Positions 3,104 to 47,130 of a DNA stretch of 64,000 bases are shown here, one piece after another. Source of the stretch: a virus. Where the stretch lies: positions 3,616 to 67,615 of IMG/VR virus record IMGVR_UViG_3300005836_000042; one strand, written 5' to 3'. Each line of letters opens with the position of its first letter. Position 1 is the stretch's first letter. Under the pieces are notes generated by a model. That model was given only the letters and a program-made list of their open reading frames with translations, ran no database searches and was not told the origin of the DNA. The position numbers were made by a program, and so were the translations under genes.

Positions 3104-4759
3104 GTGCCTCGGAGCGCCAGCGGTTTGTCGCAGCCGACTTTCGAGGAACTGATCCGGAGTCAGGAGGCACGGGACAAGCTCTCGCTTCCCCAACTCCAAC
3201 AGTTCTACGACAAGCTCAAGGAAGCAGCGGCAGGGATCGGCAGGTCTCGGGGGATCCCCAATAACCCTGGAGACTTCGCTGCAGAACTCTCCGGAGGCGA
3301 GTGGATTCACGCCAGGCACCTCGACTTTCTGTCCAACTTGCTGGCGCGAGCCGAGCGGCGCGAGATCCGCAGACTGATGGTCTCGATGCCTCCCCGCCAC
3401 GGCAAGAGCCTGCTCATCAACGTGTGGTTCCCCATCTGGTGGCTTACTCGCCACCCAAAGGACACCGTCGTCCTGGCAGGCTATGGGGAGCGCTTCGCTC
3501 GGGAATGGGGTGGCAAGGTTCGGGATCTGATCATCCAGAACCGCGAGAAGCTGAACCTCGTGGTCAAGGACGACTCTGTTGCTGCGGACGACTGGCGACT
3601 GAACATGGGCGGCGGAATGATCTCGGTCGGAGTCGGCGGAGCCCTGACAGGACGAGGCGCGCACCTCCTGATCATCGACGACCCGATCAAGAACGAGCAG
3701 GAGGCCAACTCCGAGGTCTACCGCGAGCGCATGTGGAACTGGTGGCAGGCGACGTCTTCCACGAGAATCGAGCCCAACGGCGTCGTGGTCCTCGTTGCAA
3801 CGCGCTGGCACGAAGACGATCTCCTGGGAAGGCTGAGCAAGGAGAAGGACGCCTCATGGGAGATCGTCAACCTCCCCGCCATCGCGGAGGAGAACGACGC
3901 GCTTGGCAGGGCAGTTGGGGATCCCCTCTGGCCAGAGCGCTGGGCGAACGACGACCCTGACTACGAGATCCGCAAGAAAACTTCGGGGCCGTACTGGTGG
4001 TCGGCGCTCTTTCAGGGCAGGCCGTCGCCACCTGGTGGTGGCATCTTCCAACGGGAGGACTGGCAGTTCTTCAGCGACGTCAAGCAGGTGATCTCTGAGG
4101 CTGACCAGATGGTGCAGTGCTGGGACCTTGCGATGAAGGACAAGACGTCGAGCGACTACACCGTGGGGCAGGTGTGGGCCAGGAAGGGGGCTGACTTCTT
4201 CCTCGTCGACCAGATCCGTGGCCACTTCGATCTCGCTGCGATCGAGCGCTACATGAAGATGTTCACCCTGAAGTACCCCAAGGCTCTCGCCAAGCTCGTC
4301 GAGGACGCGGCTCTTGGCCCGGCGCTGAAGCAGAGGCTTCAGCACGAGGTCTCGGGGATCGTCCCCATCAAGGTCTCTGCAGGTCCGAAGTCCCCTTCCA
4401 AGACAGCTCGTGCGCAGAACGTGGTGCCCTATCTGCAGGGCCACAACATCTACCTTCGGGCTGAAGAGGATGGGACGAAGCCGCAGTGGGTCTGGGAGTT
4501 CATCGAGGAGTGCGCTCAGTTCGACAAGGGTGCCCACGACGATCAGGTCGACGCGATGGGCCATGCGATTGCCTACATGCAGCCTGGCGGCTGGAGGGAC
4601 ATCAAGAAGGCGCTCGCGGAGGCGATGGAGAAGGACCCGAGCAACGTGATGACTCCTCAGCAAGCGCGACAGGTGTGGTTCGCAGAGAAGACGAAGCAGG
4701 TTCGCAAGCGTGCTGACAGGTTGTTCAACCCGCCACGGCGGGGGACGAGGATGTGGTGA
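3104..4759 (+). CDS. terL: terminase large subunit
   Basis: Walker A MPPRHGKS, LTGRGAHLLIIDDP, TRWHEDDL, RNaseH-like WDLA and HDDQVDA motifs. Confidence 0.97.
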   Translation: MPRSASGLSQPTFEELIRSQEARDKLSLPQLQQFYDKLKEAAAGIGRSRGIPNNPGDFAAELSGGEWIHARHLDFLSNLLARAERREIRRLMVSMPPRHGKSLLINVWFPIWWLTRHPKDTVVLAGYGERFAREWGGKVRDLIIQNREKLNLVVKDDSVAADDWRLNMGGGMISVGVGGALTGRGAHLLIIDDPIKNEQEANSEVYRERMWNWWQATSSTRIEPNGVVVLVATRWHEDDLLGRLSKEKDASWEIVNLPAIAEENDALGRAVGDPLWPERWANDDPDYEIRKKTSGPYWWSALFQGRPSPPGGGIFQREDWQFFSDVKQVISEADQMVQCWDLAMKDKTSSDYTVGQVWARKGADFFLVDQIRGHFDLAAIERYMKMFTLKYPKALAKLVEDAALGPALKQRLQHEVSGIVPIKVSAGPKSPSKTARAQNVVPYLQGHNIYLRAEEDGTKPQWVWEFIEECAQFDKGAHDDQVDAMGHAIAYMQPGGWRDIKKALAEAMEKDPSNVMTPQQARQVWFAEKTKQVRKRADRLFNPPRRGTRMW

Positions 4760-42483: not shown

Positions 42484-42663
42484 TTACGCCTCCTTGTAGC
42501 GGTTGATGGTGTTGTAGAGGGTGTTGGGACTGAAGCCGAAATGCTTCGCGACCTGCGCGTCCGTCAGCTTGTGCTCCTTCTTGAACGCGATGATCTTCCG
42601 CAGCTCGGTCCGGGAAGCGATGCGAGGATGACGACCCTTGCCGCCGTTGCTCTTCTTCTTCAT
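42484..42663 (-). CDS. small helix-turn-helix DNA-binding protein
   Basis: LTDAQVAKHFGFSPNTLYNTI; ATG overlaps the polymerase stop. Confidence 0.7.
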   Translation of the reverse strand: MKKKSNGGKGRHPRIASRTELRKIIAFKKEHKLTDAQVAKHFGFSPNTLYNTINRYKEA

Positions 42664-43943
42664 GCAGCTTTCTCCATCTCGCCCCAATTGGGTCCGATCT
42701 TGACGTCAGCACCGATGACGAGGGGCAGCGCTCCGGTGACTCCAGGAGGGGTGAAGCCTTCAAACCTGGAGATTTGCATACTTCTACGCAACTTGTCAAC
42801 GAATTGTTGGAGACACCCCTCCCTGACCTCCGAGAGGATCTCGTCATGGATCAGGGCTCGAAGGGGAGTCTCCCCATTTGGCCCCATGTCTCCAACGTAG
42901 TTGGGGCTCTGGGGGTCGGTCAGATCGAGGACTGTGTCGTAGAGGATCCCAGCTGCGGTCGACTGCGGGTAGAAAGCGATCACCCTGTTCCAGTCGGAGC
43001 CCTTGACCATCTGTCCGGTTGCAGCGTCGAGCTTGGTGACGTCCCAGAACCAGTGCTTGAACCGATAGGGGTGGTCGTTTCCACCCAGGAAGTTCTCCTT
43101 AGCAGCGCGGGTCCTGAGGTTGCCATGCCAGATCTTCAGCTTGGGACACAGGTCCAGGTAGAAGTTCTGCATCTGCTCCGCGATAGCGATCGAGGGGAAC
43201 TGCTCGGGAGCCGCAAGGTTCATCATCGCGGGAGAGCCACCGTAGTTGGTGAGGTGCACCGTGCGCTTTAGCGCGTGGTAGGTGTCGCTGTCGTGGAAGC
43301 GGTCCTTGATGTTCTTCAGGAACGCCTTGAGCTTCTCGTCTGGCCATGCAAGATCCGCCGGTTCCCCCACTTTATGGGAGGTGAGGTAGGAGTGGATGCC
43401 GTACTTGGCGAGCCTCATATAGTCGGCATCGTTCGCGTACCAGCCAGTCAGTACTGCTTCGATGCCAGCGAAGTCGGCACCAACCAGCTTGCAGCCGGGT
43501 AACGCAACAATGGCCGTGCGGAACTGCTTCTGGAGCGAGTCGTCCCCGTCCTCGTCGGAGGGCTGGGGGATGTTCTGGAAGTTGGGCTCTGCGGAGCTGA
43601 GCCGCCACGTCGAGGGGACGTGTGGGAACTGCGGGTGGAAGCGGTCGTTCTCGTCGAGCAGCCCTAGGATGCTGTTGACGTAGGTTCCTTCCAGCTTGCT
43701 GAGCTTACGCCACTGCAGGATGTAGCCGAAGAAGGCATCCTTCTTGGCGAAGCGCTTGAGTGTCCCCTCGTCGGTGGAGGGCTTCCCGGTCTTGGAGTGC
43801 TTGCTGGGCTTCGACGTCTTCCCGACTACCTCCATGTACTTGATGATGTGGTCGGGGCTAGCTGGGTTGAACTTGTCGTGGACGAACCACCGCTCGACGT
43901 CGCACATCTCGTAGGTCAGGTGGTCAGGAAGAGGCTTGCTCAC
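42660..43943 (-). CDS. polA: family A DNA polymerase, polymerase half (thumb/palm/fingers)
   Basis: FNPxSP, STDEGTL, RLSSAEPNFQNIP, motif A DFAGIE, motif B KRTVHLTNYG, motif C IHDEI; own GAGG SD and GTG at 43943. Confidence 0.92.
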   Translation of the reverse strand: MSKPLPDHLTYEMCDVERWFVHDKFNPASPDHIIKYMEVVGKTSKPSKHSKTGKPSTDEGTLKRFAKKDAFFGYILQWRKLSKLEGTYVNSILGLLDENDRFHPQFPHVPSTWRLSSAEPNFQNIPQPSDEDGDDSLQKQFRTAIVALPGCKLVGADFAGIEAVLTGWYANDADYMRLAKYGIHSYLTSHKVGEPADLAWPDEKLKAFLKNIKDRFHDSDTYHALKRTVHLTNYGGSPAMMNLAAPEQFPSIAIAEQMQNFYLDLCPKLKIWHGNLRTRAAKENFLGGNDHPYRFKHWFWDVTKLDAATGQMVKGSDWNRVIAFYPQSTAAGILYDTVLDLTDPQSPNYVGDMGPNGETPLRALIHDEILSEVREGCLQQFVDKLRRSMQISRFEGFTPPGVTGALPLVIGADVKIGPNWGEMEKAA

Positions 43944-44488
43944 TGCTTTTTCCTCGCAGCACGGTCTGGGTAGCACATATGGCAGAAGCCATCTGGGCCG
44001 ATGACGCAGCCGTGAATCACCAGTTCTCTCCCCTCGGGAGAGAGCTGTCGCGGCTCAGAGTAGGCAGTGGTGTCGTCCATTCGGGCTCGCTGAAGCTCCG
44101 CGAGGCGGGCCTCGGCAGCTTCCCGCTTCCGCTCCTCGGCCATGATGAGCTGGTCCGTCTCTTCCTGTCGGTCGATCAGGGCATTCTTGGCGGCGGCAAG
44201 CTTGGCGCGGAGATCGGCCAGATCGCAGTGCGAGCAGCCAATCTCGTGAGCCGCAATGGCGTCTTTCTCGTGTGCCAATCTGAGCGCCTCCTGCGCCTCC
44301 CGCAGCTCGCGGGTCAGGCGGTCGTGGTCGGAGAGCAGTAGCCGCAAGGCTATAGCGTCGTCCTCGCGCATGTTCACGGGAACCAACAGCCCGAGAGTCC
44401 TCTTGCCAAGTTGGGCCAAGGCCGACTCGATCACCGAAGCCCATCGAGCCAACCGCTCCTTCGCCCGCTCCACGTCGCTCTCAGCCAC
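43940..44488 (-). CDS. coiled-coil hypothetical protein with C-terminal Cys motif
   Basis: 182 aa; stop overlaps the polymerase-half start. Confidence 0.7.
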   Translation of the reverse strand: MAESDVERAKERLARWASVIESALAQLGKRTLGLLVPVNMREDDAIALRLLLSDHDRLTRELREAQEALRLAHEKDAIAAHEIGCSHCDLADLRAKLAAAKNALIDRQEETDQLIMAEERKREAAEARLAELQRARMDDTTAYSEPRQLSPEGRELVIHGCVIGPDGFCHMCYPDRAARKKQ

Positions 44489-44633
44489 GGGTCAACTTCT
44501 CCCCGACTTCCACGTCAGTGTCGTCTCTGAGCGGAACTTCACTCCCAGTCACCCACCACAGCCCGTCGTACCAATGGGCCGGTTGCCACTCTCCATCCTG
44601 CACGCGAATCCAGTAGTAGCCATCGCGGTTCAT
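44481..44633 (-). CDS. Trp-rich 50-aa protein (MNRDGYYWIRVQDGEWQPAHWYDGLWWV...)
   Basis: Read manually; TGATG coupling; fills the gap exactly. Confidence 0.65.
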   Translation of the reverse strand: MNRDGYYWIRVQDGEWQPAHWYDGLWWVTGSEVPLRDDTDVEVGEKLTRG

Positions 44634-45187
44634 CACTTCTCCTCGTCCCGGGGGTGGGCGGCCCAGTACGCATCCTCACACTCCCCACACCGGCAGTTCC
44701 TATGTCCTGTGCGCGGGTCGATGCTTTGGTCCGGCTGCTCTGCCTGCTTCGGCGCATAGATGGTGTCGTCCGGCCCCTCGCCCGGCTCACAGCAGTCGGG
44801 GTAGTTCTGCGGCTGGCAGGCGTGCTTCGGCGCGGCGAGGACGCGGATCGCTTCTCGCAGCTCCTCTGCGCCGATCGTCCCTACGCCCCGGAGTCGCAGC
44901 GACCGCAGCACTCGATCGGCCGCCCCGTCTGCTCGCTCGTAGGCTTCGGCAGCGCCCTTCCTCAGCCCCTTGTCCTTCCCTGCGGTGTAGCCGTTGTCGT
45001 AGGCTGCGTCGAGGTCTTCATGGCAAGCGCAGGAGCACGCCCGACTCAGCACTTCTCGCTTGGCTGCGTCGAGGGCGCGCTGGGCTTCCTCCTCAGCCAG
45101 TGCTTGGCGCTCAAACAACGGTCCTGAGGAAATCGCTAGCCGCCACACTTCCTTCGCCAGCTTCCTCGCCGCCTCGCTAATTGCCAT
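44633..45187 (-). CDS. hypothetical protein with Cys motifs
   Basis: ATG 45187 (MAISEAARK); overlaps upstream stop. Confidence 0.65.
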   Translation of the reverse strand: MAISEAARKLAKEVWRLAISSGPLFERQALAEEEAQRALDAAKREVLSRACSCACHEDLDAAYDNGYTAGKDKGLRKGAAEAYERADGAADRVLRSLRLRGVGTIGAEELREAIRVLAAPKHACQPQNYPDCCEPGEGPDDTIYAPKQAEQPDQSIDPRTGHRNCRCGECEDAYWAAHPRDEEK

Positions 45188-45437
45188 CTTGCTTCTCCTT
45201 CCTGGTGATCTCGACGGACTGGTAGGCACCGACCGCGAGTTGCAGGAAGCCACGAAGGTCGAGCTGGGTGAGCTTGGCAAGGGAAGCGGCGTAGCAGACC
45301 ATCGTCACCGCGAGGTGAGCGTCGTCGATGTCCCGAAGGTCGGGGTGTTCAAGCGTGGACTGGTTGACGATCGGCACCTTGCTCACGCCGTAGGTGACGA
45401 GCCTGAGGATGGCCTCTTCGGAAAGGGGTTCGCTCAC
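45177..45437 (-). CDS. hypothetical protein
   Basis: 86 aa, GTGA coupling. Confidence 0.7.
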   Translation of the reverse strand: MSEPLSEEAILRLVTYGVSKVPIVNQSTLEHPDLRDIDDAHLAVTMVCYAASLAKLTQLDLRGFLQLAVGAYQSVEITRKEKQDGN

Positions 45438-45685
45438 CAGATCCTCTCGTAGGTGGCTGCGAAGACGTTTGGCTTACAAGAGTAGAACTCTCCCATGACA
45501 CCCTTGATGATCCAGTCTCCGGATTCGGCACGCATGGTTCCTTCGAGGGTCTTGATCGAGAGAGAACCGTCTTCGTTGTAGATGAAGATGCTGTGGGAGT
45601 CCCCAACGAACTTGGAGTCCAACGTCTTCCCAGCTTCGTAGAGGACGGCTTCGATTCGGATCGGCTTCTTCTGGAAGATGCTCAC
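45434..45685 (-). CDS. conserved phage protein (KKPxxIEA...TLEG...GDWII...GEFY.CKP.VF..TYE family)
   Basis: GTG 45685 overlaps the stop of the pol N-half; recognisable widespread motif. Confidence 0.8.
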   Translation of the reverse strand: MSIFQKKPIRIEAVLYEAGKTLDSKFVGDSHSIFIYNEDGSLSIKTLEGTMRAESGDWIIKGVMGEFYSCKPNVFAATYERIW

Positions 45686-47130
45686 TGTAGCTCCTTGGCT
45701 TCGAGGGCTGCTTCCCTCGCCTTCACGATGTCGCACTTGTGGCGCGACGTGACGTCTTGCTCCTTGCACGCTGTGCATACGATGACGCGCTCCTGGACGG
45801 TGGCCTTGAAGGCATTCGTGTAGACGGATGGGTCTGGCTCGCGCTTCCACCCTCCGACCCAGGGGAGCGCTTCCTTGGGCAGGTACTGCTGGATCATCTT
45901 CTCGATGGCCTCGATCGAGGTGGCGATCGACTTGGACATCCCCAAGAGGGTAGGCTTATGAACGCCGATGCCGACCTTCTCCATGGGGTAGATGGCTTGG
46001 TGGTCGAGCTGAGTGGCGTAGCGCATGAAGCTTTCCCACTGACCAGAGGCGGTGAGATCCTTCTTGAGCCCTAGCATGATGCGGAGCGTCTGGACAGGGT
46101 CGATGGCTGCGTACTTGCCTGGGTCGCTGACGTTGAGGTGCTTCCAGGGTTCGATGTCGGAGTAGAAGGGAGCAACAAATCCCAGGCCCTTGGGCAGGTC
46201 GGACTGCAGCATGTGCCAGCCCCACATCCCGTCGAGGGTTTCACCTGCGATCTCGATACCTTCTTTGCTGATCTCCTCCAAATCGAAGCGCTCGTTCCAG
46301 AACACCTTGGTGCACTTCTTGCCCATGGCCCTGCGGATAGCGAAGCGGTAGCGTTCCTCGTTGGGGACAGTCACTCCCTGGTCGGGGTGCATGGCGAAGT
46401 TCCAGCGGGTGATGCGTCCCTTCCTGGGGTTGGCGAACTCGGTCTCGCCGGTCTCGGTGTCGGTGGCAAGCCAAGCCTCAGGGTCATCAGGGATCTGCTC
46501 GACGTAGTCTCCGAACCATGTGGGAGGGGGGTCGACGATCAGCTGCGGGTTTGAGGCATTGAAGCCAAAGCTGGCAACCTCCATGGCCCGCTTGATCGCG
46601 AACAGGAAGGCCCCGAAGAGCCTGTGGTTCCCTTGCAGAACGTGAGAAGGATGGAAGGTGGGGATGACGAAGGGTCCGTTTGGCCTGCGCCCGATGACGT
46701 AGCCCTGCCAGTTCTCGATGTCACCCGAGTAGTCGACGTCGAGGACTTCCTTGAGGACCGTGCGCGTGGCGGCGACTCCCATCGTCAGGTAGGTCGAGCC
46801 GGGGGCGAGGTAGAACTTCTTGCGGTGAACGAAGCAATGGCGGATGGCGCTCTGCTCGTAACTTGCTCCCGTCAGCCAATTCCCCGGCGGGCGACAGTTG
46901 ACAGTGTTCCCGATGTAGAGCTGTTGCTTGTGGAGTCCGAGCCTGTGGAGAGCACGCTGCCAGTAGACACCGGCCTCGCCTACCAGGGGCTCGCCCTTTG
47001 CGGCCTCGTTCGCACCGAGCGCTTCGGCTATGACGATGAGAGCGGACTCAGGGTTGCCATATGGGGGAGCGAATCCTTGGCCTCGGTGTTCGAGGGGGCA
47101 GCCTGCACACTGACCGGGCTTAGCGAGCAT
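45682..47130 (-). CDS. polA: family A DNA polymerase N-terminal half: family-4 uracil-DNA glycosylase-like domain plus 3'-5' exonuclease
   Basis: CAGCPL, AEALGANE...GEPLVGEAG, NTVNCRPPGN, TFHPS (UDG); DTETG, WNERFD, YAAID (ExoI-III); YPMEKVGI thumb start. Confidence 0.88.
   Translation of the reverse strand: MLAKPGQCAGCPLEHRGQGFAPPYGNPESALIVIAEALGANEAAKGEPLVGEAGVYWQRALHRLGLHKQQLYIGNTVNCRPPGNWLTGASYEQSAIRHCFVHRKKFYLAPGSTYLTMGVAATRTVLKEVLDVDYSGDIENWQGYVIGRRPNGPFVIPTFHPSHVLQGNHRLFGAFLFAIKRAMEVASFGFNASNPQLIVDPPPTWFGDYVEQIPDDPEAWLATDTETGETEFANPRKGRITRWNFAMHPDQGVTVPNEERYRFAIRRAMGKKCTKVFWNERFDLEEISKEGIEIAGETLDGMWGWHMLQSDLPKGLGFVAPFYSDIEPWKHLNVSDPGKYAAIDPVQTLRIMLGLKKDLTASGQWESFMRYATQLDHQAIYPMEKVGIGVHKPTLLGMSKSIATSIEAIEKMIQQYLPKEALPWVGGWKREPDPSVYTNAFKATVQERVIVCTACKEQDVTSRHKCDIVKAREAALEAKELQ

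Follow-up and report, generated by a model that had tools for sequence, protein, structure and literature searches.

A phage family A DNA polymerase inherited as two genes: probable fission at a thumb-tip hairpin and the small gene that accompanies it

Family A DNA polymerases (PolA) are textbook single-chain enzymes, and it is only recently that natural splits of these proteins were described, with the cut between the exonuclease and polymerase parts. Here we describe a PolA that is encoded by two separate genes in the IMG/VR record IMGVR_UViG_3300005836_000042, which derives from an uncultured phage (67.8 kb, estimated to be 78% complete) and of which a stretch of 64,000 nucleotides (positions 3,616 to 67,615 of the record, hereafter the window, whose numbering is used throughout) was analysed. 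The polymerase is encoded on the minus strand as an N-terminal half (N-half) of 482 aa (47130..45682) and a C-terminal half (C-half) of 427 aa (43943..42660), and the 1.74-kb gap between the halves is wholly occupied by five open reading frames (ORFs), A to E. In the reading that we favour, with a probability of roughly 0.8, this arrangement is the product of an inherited gene fission, in which a replicase combining a UDG (uracil-DNA glycosylase) domain, an exonuclease and a PolA domain was cut in the linker at the tip of a thumb hairpin, in association with one small gap gene, B. Split phage PolAs were already known; what is new here is that the cut is at the tip of a thumb hairpin and that the same small gene goes with it in every case, and this strict tie of B to the split is the main new result of this work.

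The split and its companion gene in related viruses

The comparison is based on 110 related loci, which were fetched and scored by tblastn, with 21 split loci additionally checked at the DNA level (a locus search in viral contigs with the single N-half protein gave no matches, and the loci were obtained from an alignment-based scan). A protein search yielded more than 60 clusters of N-half homologues, 460-495 aa long and 42-69% identical, and the homologues below about 41% identity carry UDG and the polymerase family PF00476 in one protein. At every locus whose N-half is at least 43% identical to that of the window, the frame stops 1-16 codons after the last Cys of a Cys/His motif (described below) and is followed by a gap of 190-1400 nt and then by the C-half; the loci at 39% identity or less mostly have a single open frame through the junction. 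When measured at the DNA level, gap lengths run from 259 to 1738 nt, with differing extra ORFs. The N-half stop codon in the relatives is TGA (12), TAG (3) or TAA (2), and the frame of the N-half differs from that of the C-half. A maximum-likelihood tree groups the split N-halves in a single clade (ultrafast bootstrap, UFBoot, 100; Shimodaira-Hasegawa-like approximate likelihood ratio test, SH-aLRT, 98), which adjoins a group of fused polymerases carrying the zinc motif, with the fused forms lacking this motif further out.

The second gap ORF, B, is the element that the initial annotation missed. Iterated hidden Markov model (HMM) searches starting from the window B found a homologue between the halves in all of the relatives that are split at this site and have sequence past the N-half stop (21 of 21). 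The same profile found no B in the roughly 70 fused loci, nor in eight whole virus records of the fused type (seven of them at least 91% complete), and it recovers the copy in its own genome with an E-value of 2.4e-27 (positive control). The start of B lies between -35 and +5 nt from the N-half stop in 9 of 18 loci, typically in an ATGA overlap, and the smallest gaps (259-414 nt, at loci L084, L002 and L085) contain B alone. Throughout the clade, the split has B as its conserved companion.

The split is thus an inherited trait and not an artefact. An assembly error, or the decay of a non-functional polymerase gene, would find some favour in the uniqueness of ORFs A, C, D and E to this contig, as well as in the deviant GC content (0.63-0.70) and weaker codon scores of the C-E block; nevertheless, we consider it very improbable, given that the order N-half, B, C-half recurs in 21 independent metagenome contigs and that both halves are intact, with invariant active sites and clean stop/start junctions. 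Additionally, the C-half is the only PF00476 match in the 67.8-kb record, which contains no other PolA. The recurrence of the break, its restriction to one clade, the invariance of the catalytic residues and this sole PF00476 match argue, taken together, against misassembly and pseudogenisation, and also against an intron, an intein or recoding. The proposal of the initial annotation that this is a genuine two-protein PolA, broken in the thumb, is therefore upheld, since all close relatives have the same break, both halves keep invariant catalytic residues, and the relatives that resemble the ancestor are fused.

Some points have nevertheless to be set against an inherited fission with associated B. 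The tree was midpoint-rooted, and the direction from fused to split is deduced from the outgroup pattern. The label "split" is based on DNA for the fetched loci and on protein length for the other N-half homologues, and the window contig was taken as assembled. Finally, the association and the activity of the halves are deduced from sequence and from a structural model.

Gene layout and the site of the cut

The features of the locus are the following, all on the minus strand:

45682..47130, minus strand: PolA N-half, 482 aa, with UDG-like domain, 3'-5' exonuclease, N-terminal palm, thumb helix H, first hairpin strand and putative zinc knuckle
45733..45777, minus strand: putative zinc knuckle CxxC-x8-H-x-C (C452, C455, H464, C466), 16 residues before the N-half stop
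45679..45687, minus strand: 9-mer CAGTGAGCA at the junction between N-half and A
45434..45685, minus strand: gap ORF A, 83 aa, with a GTG start overlapping the N-half TGA
45177..45437, minus strand: gap ORF B, 86 aa, second ORF of the gap, an acidic protein with three predicted helices
44633..45187, minus strand: gap ORF C, 184 aa if read from the ATG at 45187 (its longest frame begins at 45280), Cys-rich
44481..44636, minus strand: gap ORF D, 51 aa, GTGA-coupled to C
43940..44488, minus strand: gap ORF E, 182 aa, coiled-coil-like, with a Cys/His-rich tail and a TGA overlapping the C-half GTG
43937..43945, minus strand: 9-mer CAGTGAGCA at the junction between E and C-half
42660..43943, minus strand: PolA C-half, 427 aa, with second hairpin strand, thumb helices H1, H2 and I, palm and fingers, and motifs A, B and C

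The N-half ends at the TGA at 45682-45684, and the C-half begins at the GTG at 43943, which overlaps the preceding TGA and has a GAGG 8 nt before it; the C-halves of the relatives start at the corresponding place. At the sequence level this confirms the N-half stop, as well as the separate Shine-Dalgarno sequence and GTG start of the C-half, as first annotated. Of the block's six junctions, four are stop/start overlaps of the GTGA type, and at the remaining two the frames overlap by 8-11 nt. ORFs A-E have positive codon scores in their own frame only (GC at third codon positions 0.71-0.82), those of C, D and E being weaker than those of A and B, and positive all the same. No promoter-like site was seen in the region, including the coding strand of the gap, and none of the three terminator-like matches in the region lies inside the gap. 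The description of the gap as filled by five overlapping ORFs, with no room for a ribozyme, also holds: all of it is coding, and Rfam covariance models found no intron or ribozyme in the region (at E<=1 they returned a single chance microRNA match).

The N-half contains a UDG domain (Pfam PF03167, residues 22-170, E 1.2e-13), and the family-4 UDG structures 1L9G and 1VK2 match the N-half profile with E-values of about 1e-28 (best 2.5e-28). In this UDG-like domain C8 and C11 (codons 47107-47109 and 47098-47100) are nearly invariant and C79 and C99 are invariant, a sequence pattern that corresponds to the Fe-S cysteines of the family-4 UDGs. The first UDG motif reads A-E-A-L-G (the canonical form being G-E-x-P-G). 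The exonuclease residues D224 and E226 (Exo I, DxE), D283 (Exo II) and Y340 and D344 (Exo III, YxxxD) are invariant in 34 homologues. Positions 335-420 of the profile built from these 34 sequences align with residues 166-251 of the Klenow chain (Pol I 489-574), a segment that we take to run from Exo III through thumb helix H, with helix boundaries from established structural knowledge.

The C-half matches positions 27-381 of the PF00476 profile (E 1.2e-28), and across 11 homologues there is no variation at its residues D157, E162, K226, G235, H366 and D367 (motifs A, B and C). The O-helix (43239-43475, minus strand) reads Y222-x3-K226-x3-H230-x3-Y234-G and is atypical, with Tyr at the position of Arg754 and His at that of Phe762 of E. 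coli Pol I. In the 11 C-halves of the split clade, Y222, K226 and H230 never vary and Y234 is at least 90% conserved, and this oddity is therefore a conserved trait of the clade and not an error.

Since C-half residue 23 aligns with Klenow chain residue 253 (and residue 46 with Taq 503), the two halves abut on the canonical enzyme at Klenow chain residues 251 and 253, which maps the break on an intact PolA. Thumb, palm and fingers are consequently not carried by one polypeptide: the 482-aa protein has helix H and the N-terminal palm, and the 427-aa protein supplies everything else. The last 55-60 aa (approximately) of the N-half and the first 22 aa of the C-half form an insertion without Klenow counterpart between helices H and H1, the thumb position at which the thioredoxin-binding loop of T7 gp5 also sits. 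The fused relatives are collinear over the break and show the motif CxxC-x8-HxC (invariant across the 34-sequence N-half alignment), followed by a variable linker of 5-50 aa and then by the stretch V-x-R-W-F...F-N-P-x-S. The break falls in this variable linker, just after the CCHC motif, and the V-x-R-W-F...F-N-P-x-S stretch opens the C-half.

A three-dimensional view of this insertion comes from an AlphaFold2 (AF2) model of the fused relative L010 (998 aa, 27-sequence alignment, predicted local distance difference test (pLDDT) score 87.8, predicted template modelling (pTM) score 0.83), which superposes on Klenow, Taq and Pol theta with template modelling (TM) scores of 0.64-0.81, depending on the target, those for Klenow and Taq being 0.7-0.8. 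Helix H spans residues 408-432 of the model, two strands (486-499 and 522-535) have the Cys/His motif between them, and H1 follows at 543-552, with the CCHC motif at the tip of a confidently modelled long beta-hairpin. With the motif placed between the two strands, fission opens the distal turn of a protruding hairpin; based on this model, the N-half would retain strand 1 and the knuckle, and the C-half would begin with strand 2. The break is thus located in a lineage-specific beta-hairpin/zinc-knuckle insertion and not in the canonical thumb helices, a point that had escaped the initial annotation.

The possibility that the halves are joined into one polypeptide, whether by an intron, a split intein, ribosomal bypass or stop recoding, has a precedent of sorts in the inteins and the LAGLIDADG insert found in distant relatives of the polymerase. 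The new termini, however, extend for 1-16 aa after the last Cys and for 6-13 aa before VERWF, which is too little for intein halves, and all of these residues align to the fused relatives. A Pfam scan of both halves found no Hint or intein domain, in line with the earlier statement that neither end has an intein signature; moreover, there is no Rfam intron and the gap is fully coding. Recoding of the TGA, considered separately, was rejected, since the relatives use all three stop codons and their halves are in different frames. Joining by any of these routes is accordingly a highly unlikely explanation, on a par with misassembly or decay.

Proposed reassembly of the halves and the possible role of B

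Under inherited fission, the ancestor would have carried a thumb-tip insertion between H and H1, a long beta-hairpin capped by the CCHC zinc knuckle, and its gene would have been severed in the variable linker that immediately follows the knuckle, where the hairpin makes its distal turn, an event associated with the arrival of B. We infer a single origin of the cut, with the arrival of B as the probable splitting event. The two polypeptides would then be made from one translationally coupled operon and may reassemble non-covalently, through the two hairpin strands, one contributed by each half, with inter-chain pairing expected between 'VQERVIVC' and 'LTYEMCDVERWF'. A second contact would be provided by the antiparallel thumb helices H (N-half) and I (C-half), and a third by the exonuclease/palm interface. 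The gap tolerates extra genes, with B kept by all members and the cargo being phage-specific (in the window, A before B and C-E after it). A complex prediction with N-half residues 195-482 and the C-half, and B as partner, gave a score of 0.00; it was run without controls and is given no weight in either direction.

The initial annotation had suggested that the halves could be held together by a metal-binding clasp built from the ends of both proteins. Both terminal motifs on which this idea was founded do exist: CxxC-x8-H-x-C is present and invariant at the end of the N-half, and DHLTYEMC is present at the start of the C-half, although the His and Cys of the latter are not conserved (the C-half starts of the relatives read ...YEEVDVERWF, and the divergent members have no such segment at all). 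The clasp itself is unsupported, given that the N-half alone has the full CCHC motif and that this motif, being found in the fused relatives too, predates the split. Pairing of the hairpin strands, together with the H and I helices, is the more likely junction.

B is a divergent family (mean column identity 25%, with one Leu as the sole invariant residue) of acidic proteins (median pI about 5), and the AF2 model of the window B is a three-helix bundle with a pLDDT of 89.8. It has no Pfam or PHROG match, a fold search with the model against the Protein Data Bank (PDB) and AlphaFold DB clusters returned nothing better than an E-value of about 1, and a feature search of the ESM Atlas returned viral hypothetical clusters only, all below 0.9. 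An exhaustive profile search over 1.84 billion representatives found 68 B clusters, all of them stand-alone proteins of 68-136 aa, with no N-B or B-C fusion among them. Two divergent matches are on contigs of about 1 kb, where B directly follows an ORF that runs off the contig end, and one weak match (P0177, E 9e-5), whose surroundings are not those of a polymerase, may fall outside the family. We considered whether B could descend from a domain of the ancestral polymerase and rejected this origin, since the fused relatives have a linker of 5-50 aa at that place and no fusion exists among the 68 clusters.

What B does is a matter of graded possibilities. It may work with the polymerase, for which we see about one chance in three, or it may be a retained gene with another job. 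A somewhat less probable variant is that B acts as a third obligatory component on the opened hairpin tip or knuckle, as an assembly clamp or as a processivity or accessory factor, by analogy with thioredoxin on T7 gp5. The co-occurrence of B with the split at 21 of 21 loci and its absence from fused genomes would fit such a component, as would its start near the N-half stop in half of the loci compared, its retention while the surrounding cargo turns over, and its small, acidic and (in the model) well-folded nature without conserved residues of catalytic type, which suits a binding role; the break lies, in addition, at the site of the thioredoxin-binding loop in the established anatomy of the T7 enzyme. 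On the other hand, simple synteny inside a single clade could account for the conserved position of B, a B-like domain is absent from the site in all fused relatives, the lack of fusions holds across the whole set of B clusters, and the weak B-like match mentioned above is outside any PolA context. The most specific version, in which B is an obligate third subunit born with the fission, docking on the knuckle hairpin and holding the halves together and/or tuning processivity or replisome contacts in a heterotrimer, is unlikely in our judgement, the least probable of these proposals for B. If it were true, this would be a heterotrimeric family A replicase, with B as a phage-encoded counterpart of thioredoxin on T7 gp5.

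Gap cargo, other cuts and known systems

Apart from B, the gap ORFs (A, C, D and E) are variable cargo, and the content of the gap ranges from B alone to B with up to four others, in agreement with the initial view of the junction as an insertion hot spot. ORF A matches phrog_419 (E 4.9e-24), as well as phrog_4502 and phrog_1810 (a phage family of unknown function), has a coding score of 0.54 bits per codon and is matched by nothing in the sequence fetched for the 110 related loci. ORFs C, D and E match no Pfam or PHROGs family (for C and E at a threshold of E<0.001). Over 44050-45100 (ORFs C-E) the GC content rises to the range given above, versus about 0.59-0.60 in the polymerase halves, and the GC skew turns negative; together with the weaker codon scores, this suggests that the C-E block was acquired more recently and is foreign. 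In several relatives the cargo consists of small hydrophobic proteins, with features like those of signal peptides or transmembrane segments, before or after B (L088:6407-6694, L090:6398-6664 and L103:6570-6824; also L089); those of L088, L090 and L103 are unrelated to A and C-E of the window.

The 9-bp repeat that the initial annotation had seen flanking the insert does occur at both outer junctions, and there only within the window, and its interpretation as a footprint of insertion does not hold. Its GTGAGC part is found again at the A/B junction and is frequent as a hexamer, with 35 copies on that strand, which leaves an excess over chance of only about three bases, and no flanking repeat was found in the relatives. 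A target-site duplication or recombination scar was rejected on these grounds; a repeat-to-repeat deletion would remove B as well, and no relative lacks B. The 9-mer is best read as a shared start-codon context plus about three chance bases.

The closest precedent for a family A phage replicase inherited as two genes is the exonuclease/polymerase fission of S-SBP1-like cyanophages of the T7 type, reported as the first PolA split (Czernecki et al. 2023, PMC10201439); this cut arose by frameshift, has no gene in between, and the halves are expected to reassemble with solvent-exposed new termini (PMC10201439). The cut in the window, in contrast, divides the polymerase domain itself, where the thumb insertion has its tip, and has a conserved gene in the gap: the N-half continues beyond the S-SBP1-like boundary, through Klenow residue 574 and into the 55-60 aa of the insertion. 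Both UDG-PolA fusions and thumb-tip insertions have also been described, the latter, in phiKMV-like phages, as beta-strands extending away from the core (PMC10201439).

The known UDG-PolA fusions (N4-like cluster 17, the SPO1/SP-10/SP-15 type and PDB entry 9qhs, whose sequence match is confined to the UDG part) have the same order of UDG, exonuclease and PolA, but are single polypeptides. The loop of T7 gp5 and the phiKMV-like insertions are likewise lineage-specific insertions between H and H1, whereas the insertion in the window carries a CCHC motif and is the site of fission. In another phage group PolA is also split, and related genomes share a small ORF of unknown function that separates the halves; this group is unrelated to the present one and absent from the tblastn matches of the N-half in the phage collection. 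Replication enzymes essential to phages and cut by DNA of mobile endonucleases, such as nrdA/mobE of Aeromonas phage Aeh1 and the split gp43 of T4-related phages, are reportedly functional as reassembled fragments. Unlike in such genes-in-pieces, the five gap ORFs, B included, have no homing-endonuclease domain, with no nuclease or homing-endonuclease family detected by Pfam and PHROGs in A-E or in the B proteins of the relatives.

This clade shows that even a cut within the catalytic domain can be passed on over a long time (identity between N-halves has fallen to 43%), that the cut is at a point which makes structural sense, where a protruding hairpin makes its distal turn, and that a previously undescribed family of small proteins always travels with the cut. 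It raises the questions of whether a helper is needed for the assembly of a split PolA and whether the thumb tip is, once again, a docking site for accessory proteins. The hairpin tip is, besides, a natural permissive site for engineering split or insert-bearing PolAs, and in annotation both halves should be labelled as one enzyme, with the B-family genes marking the lineage.

Other cuts were seen among the relatives. A second class lies just before motif A (C-half residues 141-151, approximately) in L113:1428-4044, L114:4001-6941, L033, L035, L039, L028 and L029, and is an independent fission site in the same UDG-PolA family. Relatives of the L113/L114 type, which are the nearest ones fused at the thumb, have a pair of ORFs that overlap directly (548+330 aa and 607+374 aa), leaving no intervening gene and no B. 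In a third class, made of more distant relatives (L043-L047, L049, L052, L055, L064, L065 and L068), the cut is near the exonuclease/polymerase boundary: the N-terminal part stops at query residues 359-432 and the polymerase part follows 13-1469 nt later, again without B.

In-frame inserts in the polymerase were also observed, namely an intein at L054:7324-8496 (Intein_splicing and Hint_2), a LAGLIDADG endonuclease domain at L076:7189-8751 and a 315-aa insert without Pfam match at L020:8251-9195. Downstream of the polymerase in the window, a 67-aa HTH_23 protein (42484-42687, minus strand) overlaps the end of the C-half, and in relatives (L003, 10078-10254, and the P0006 contigs) the C-half is followed by a gene with the same weak or faint HTH_23 match, a conserved downstream neighbour.

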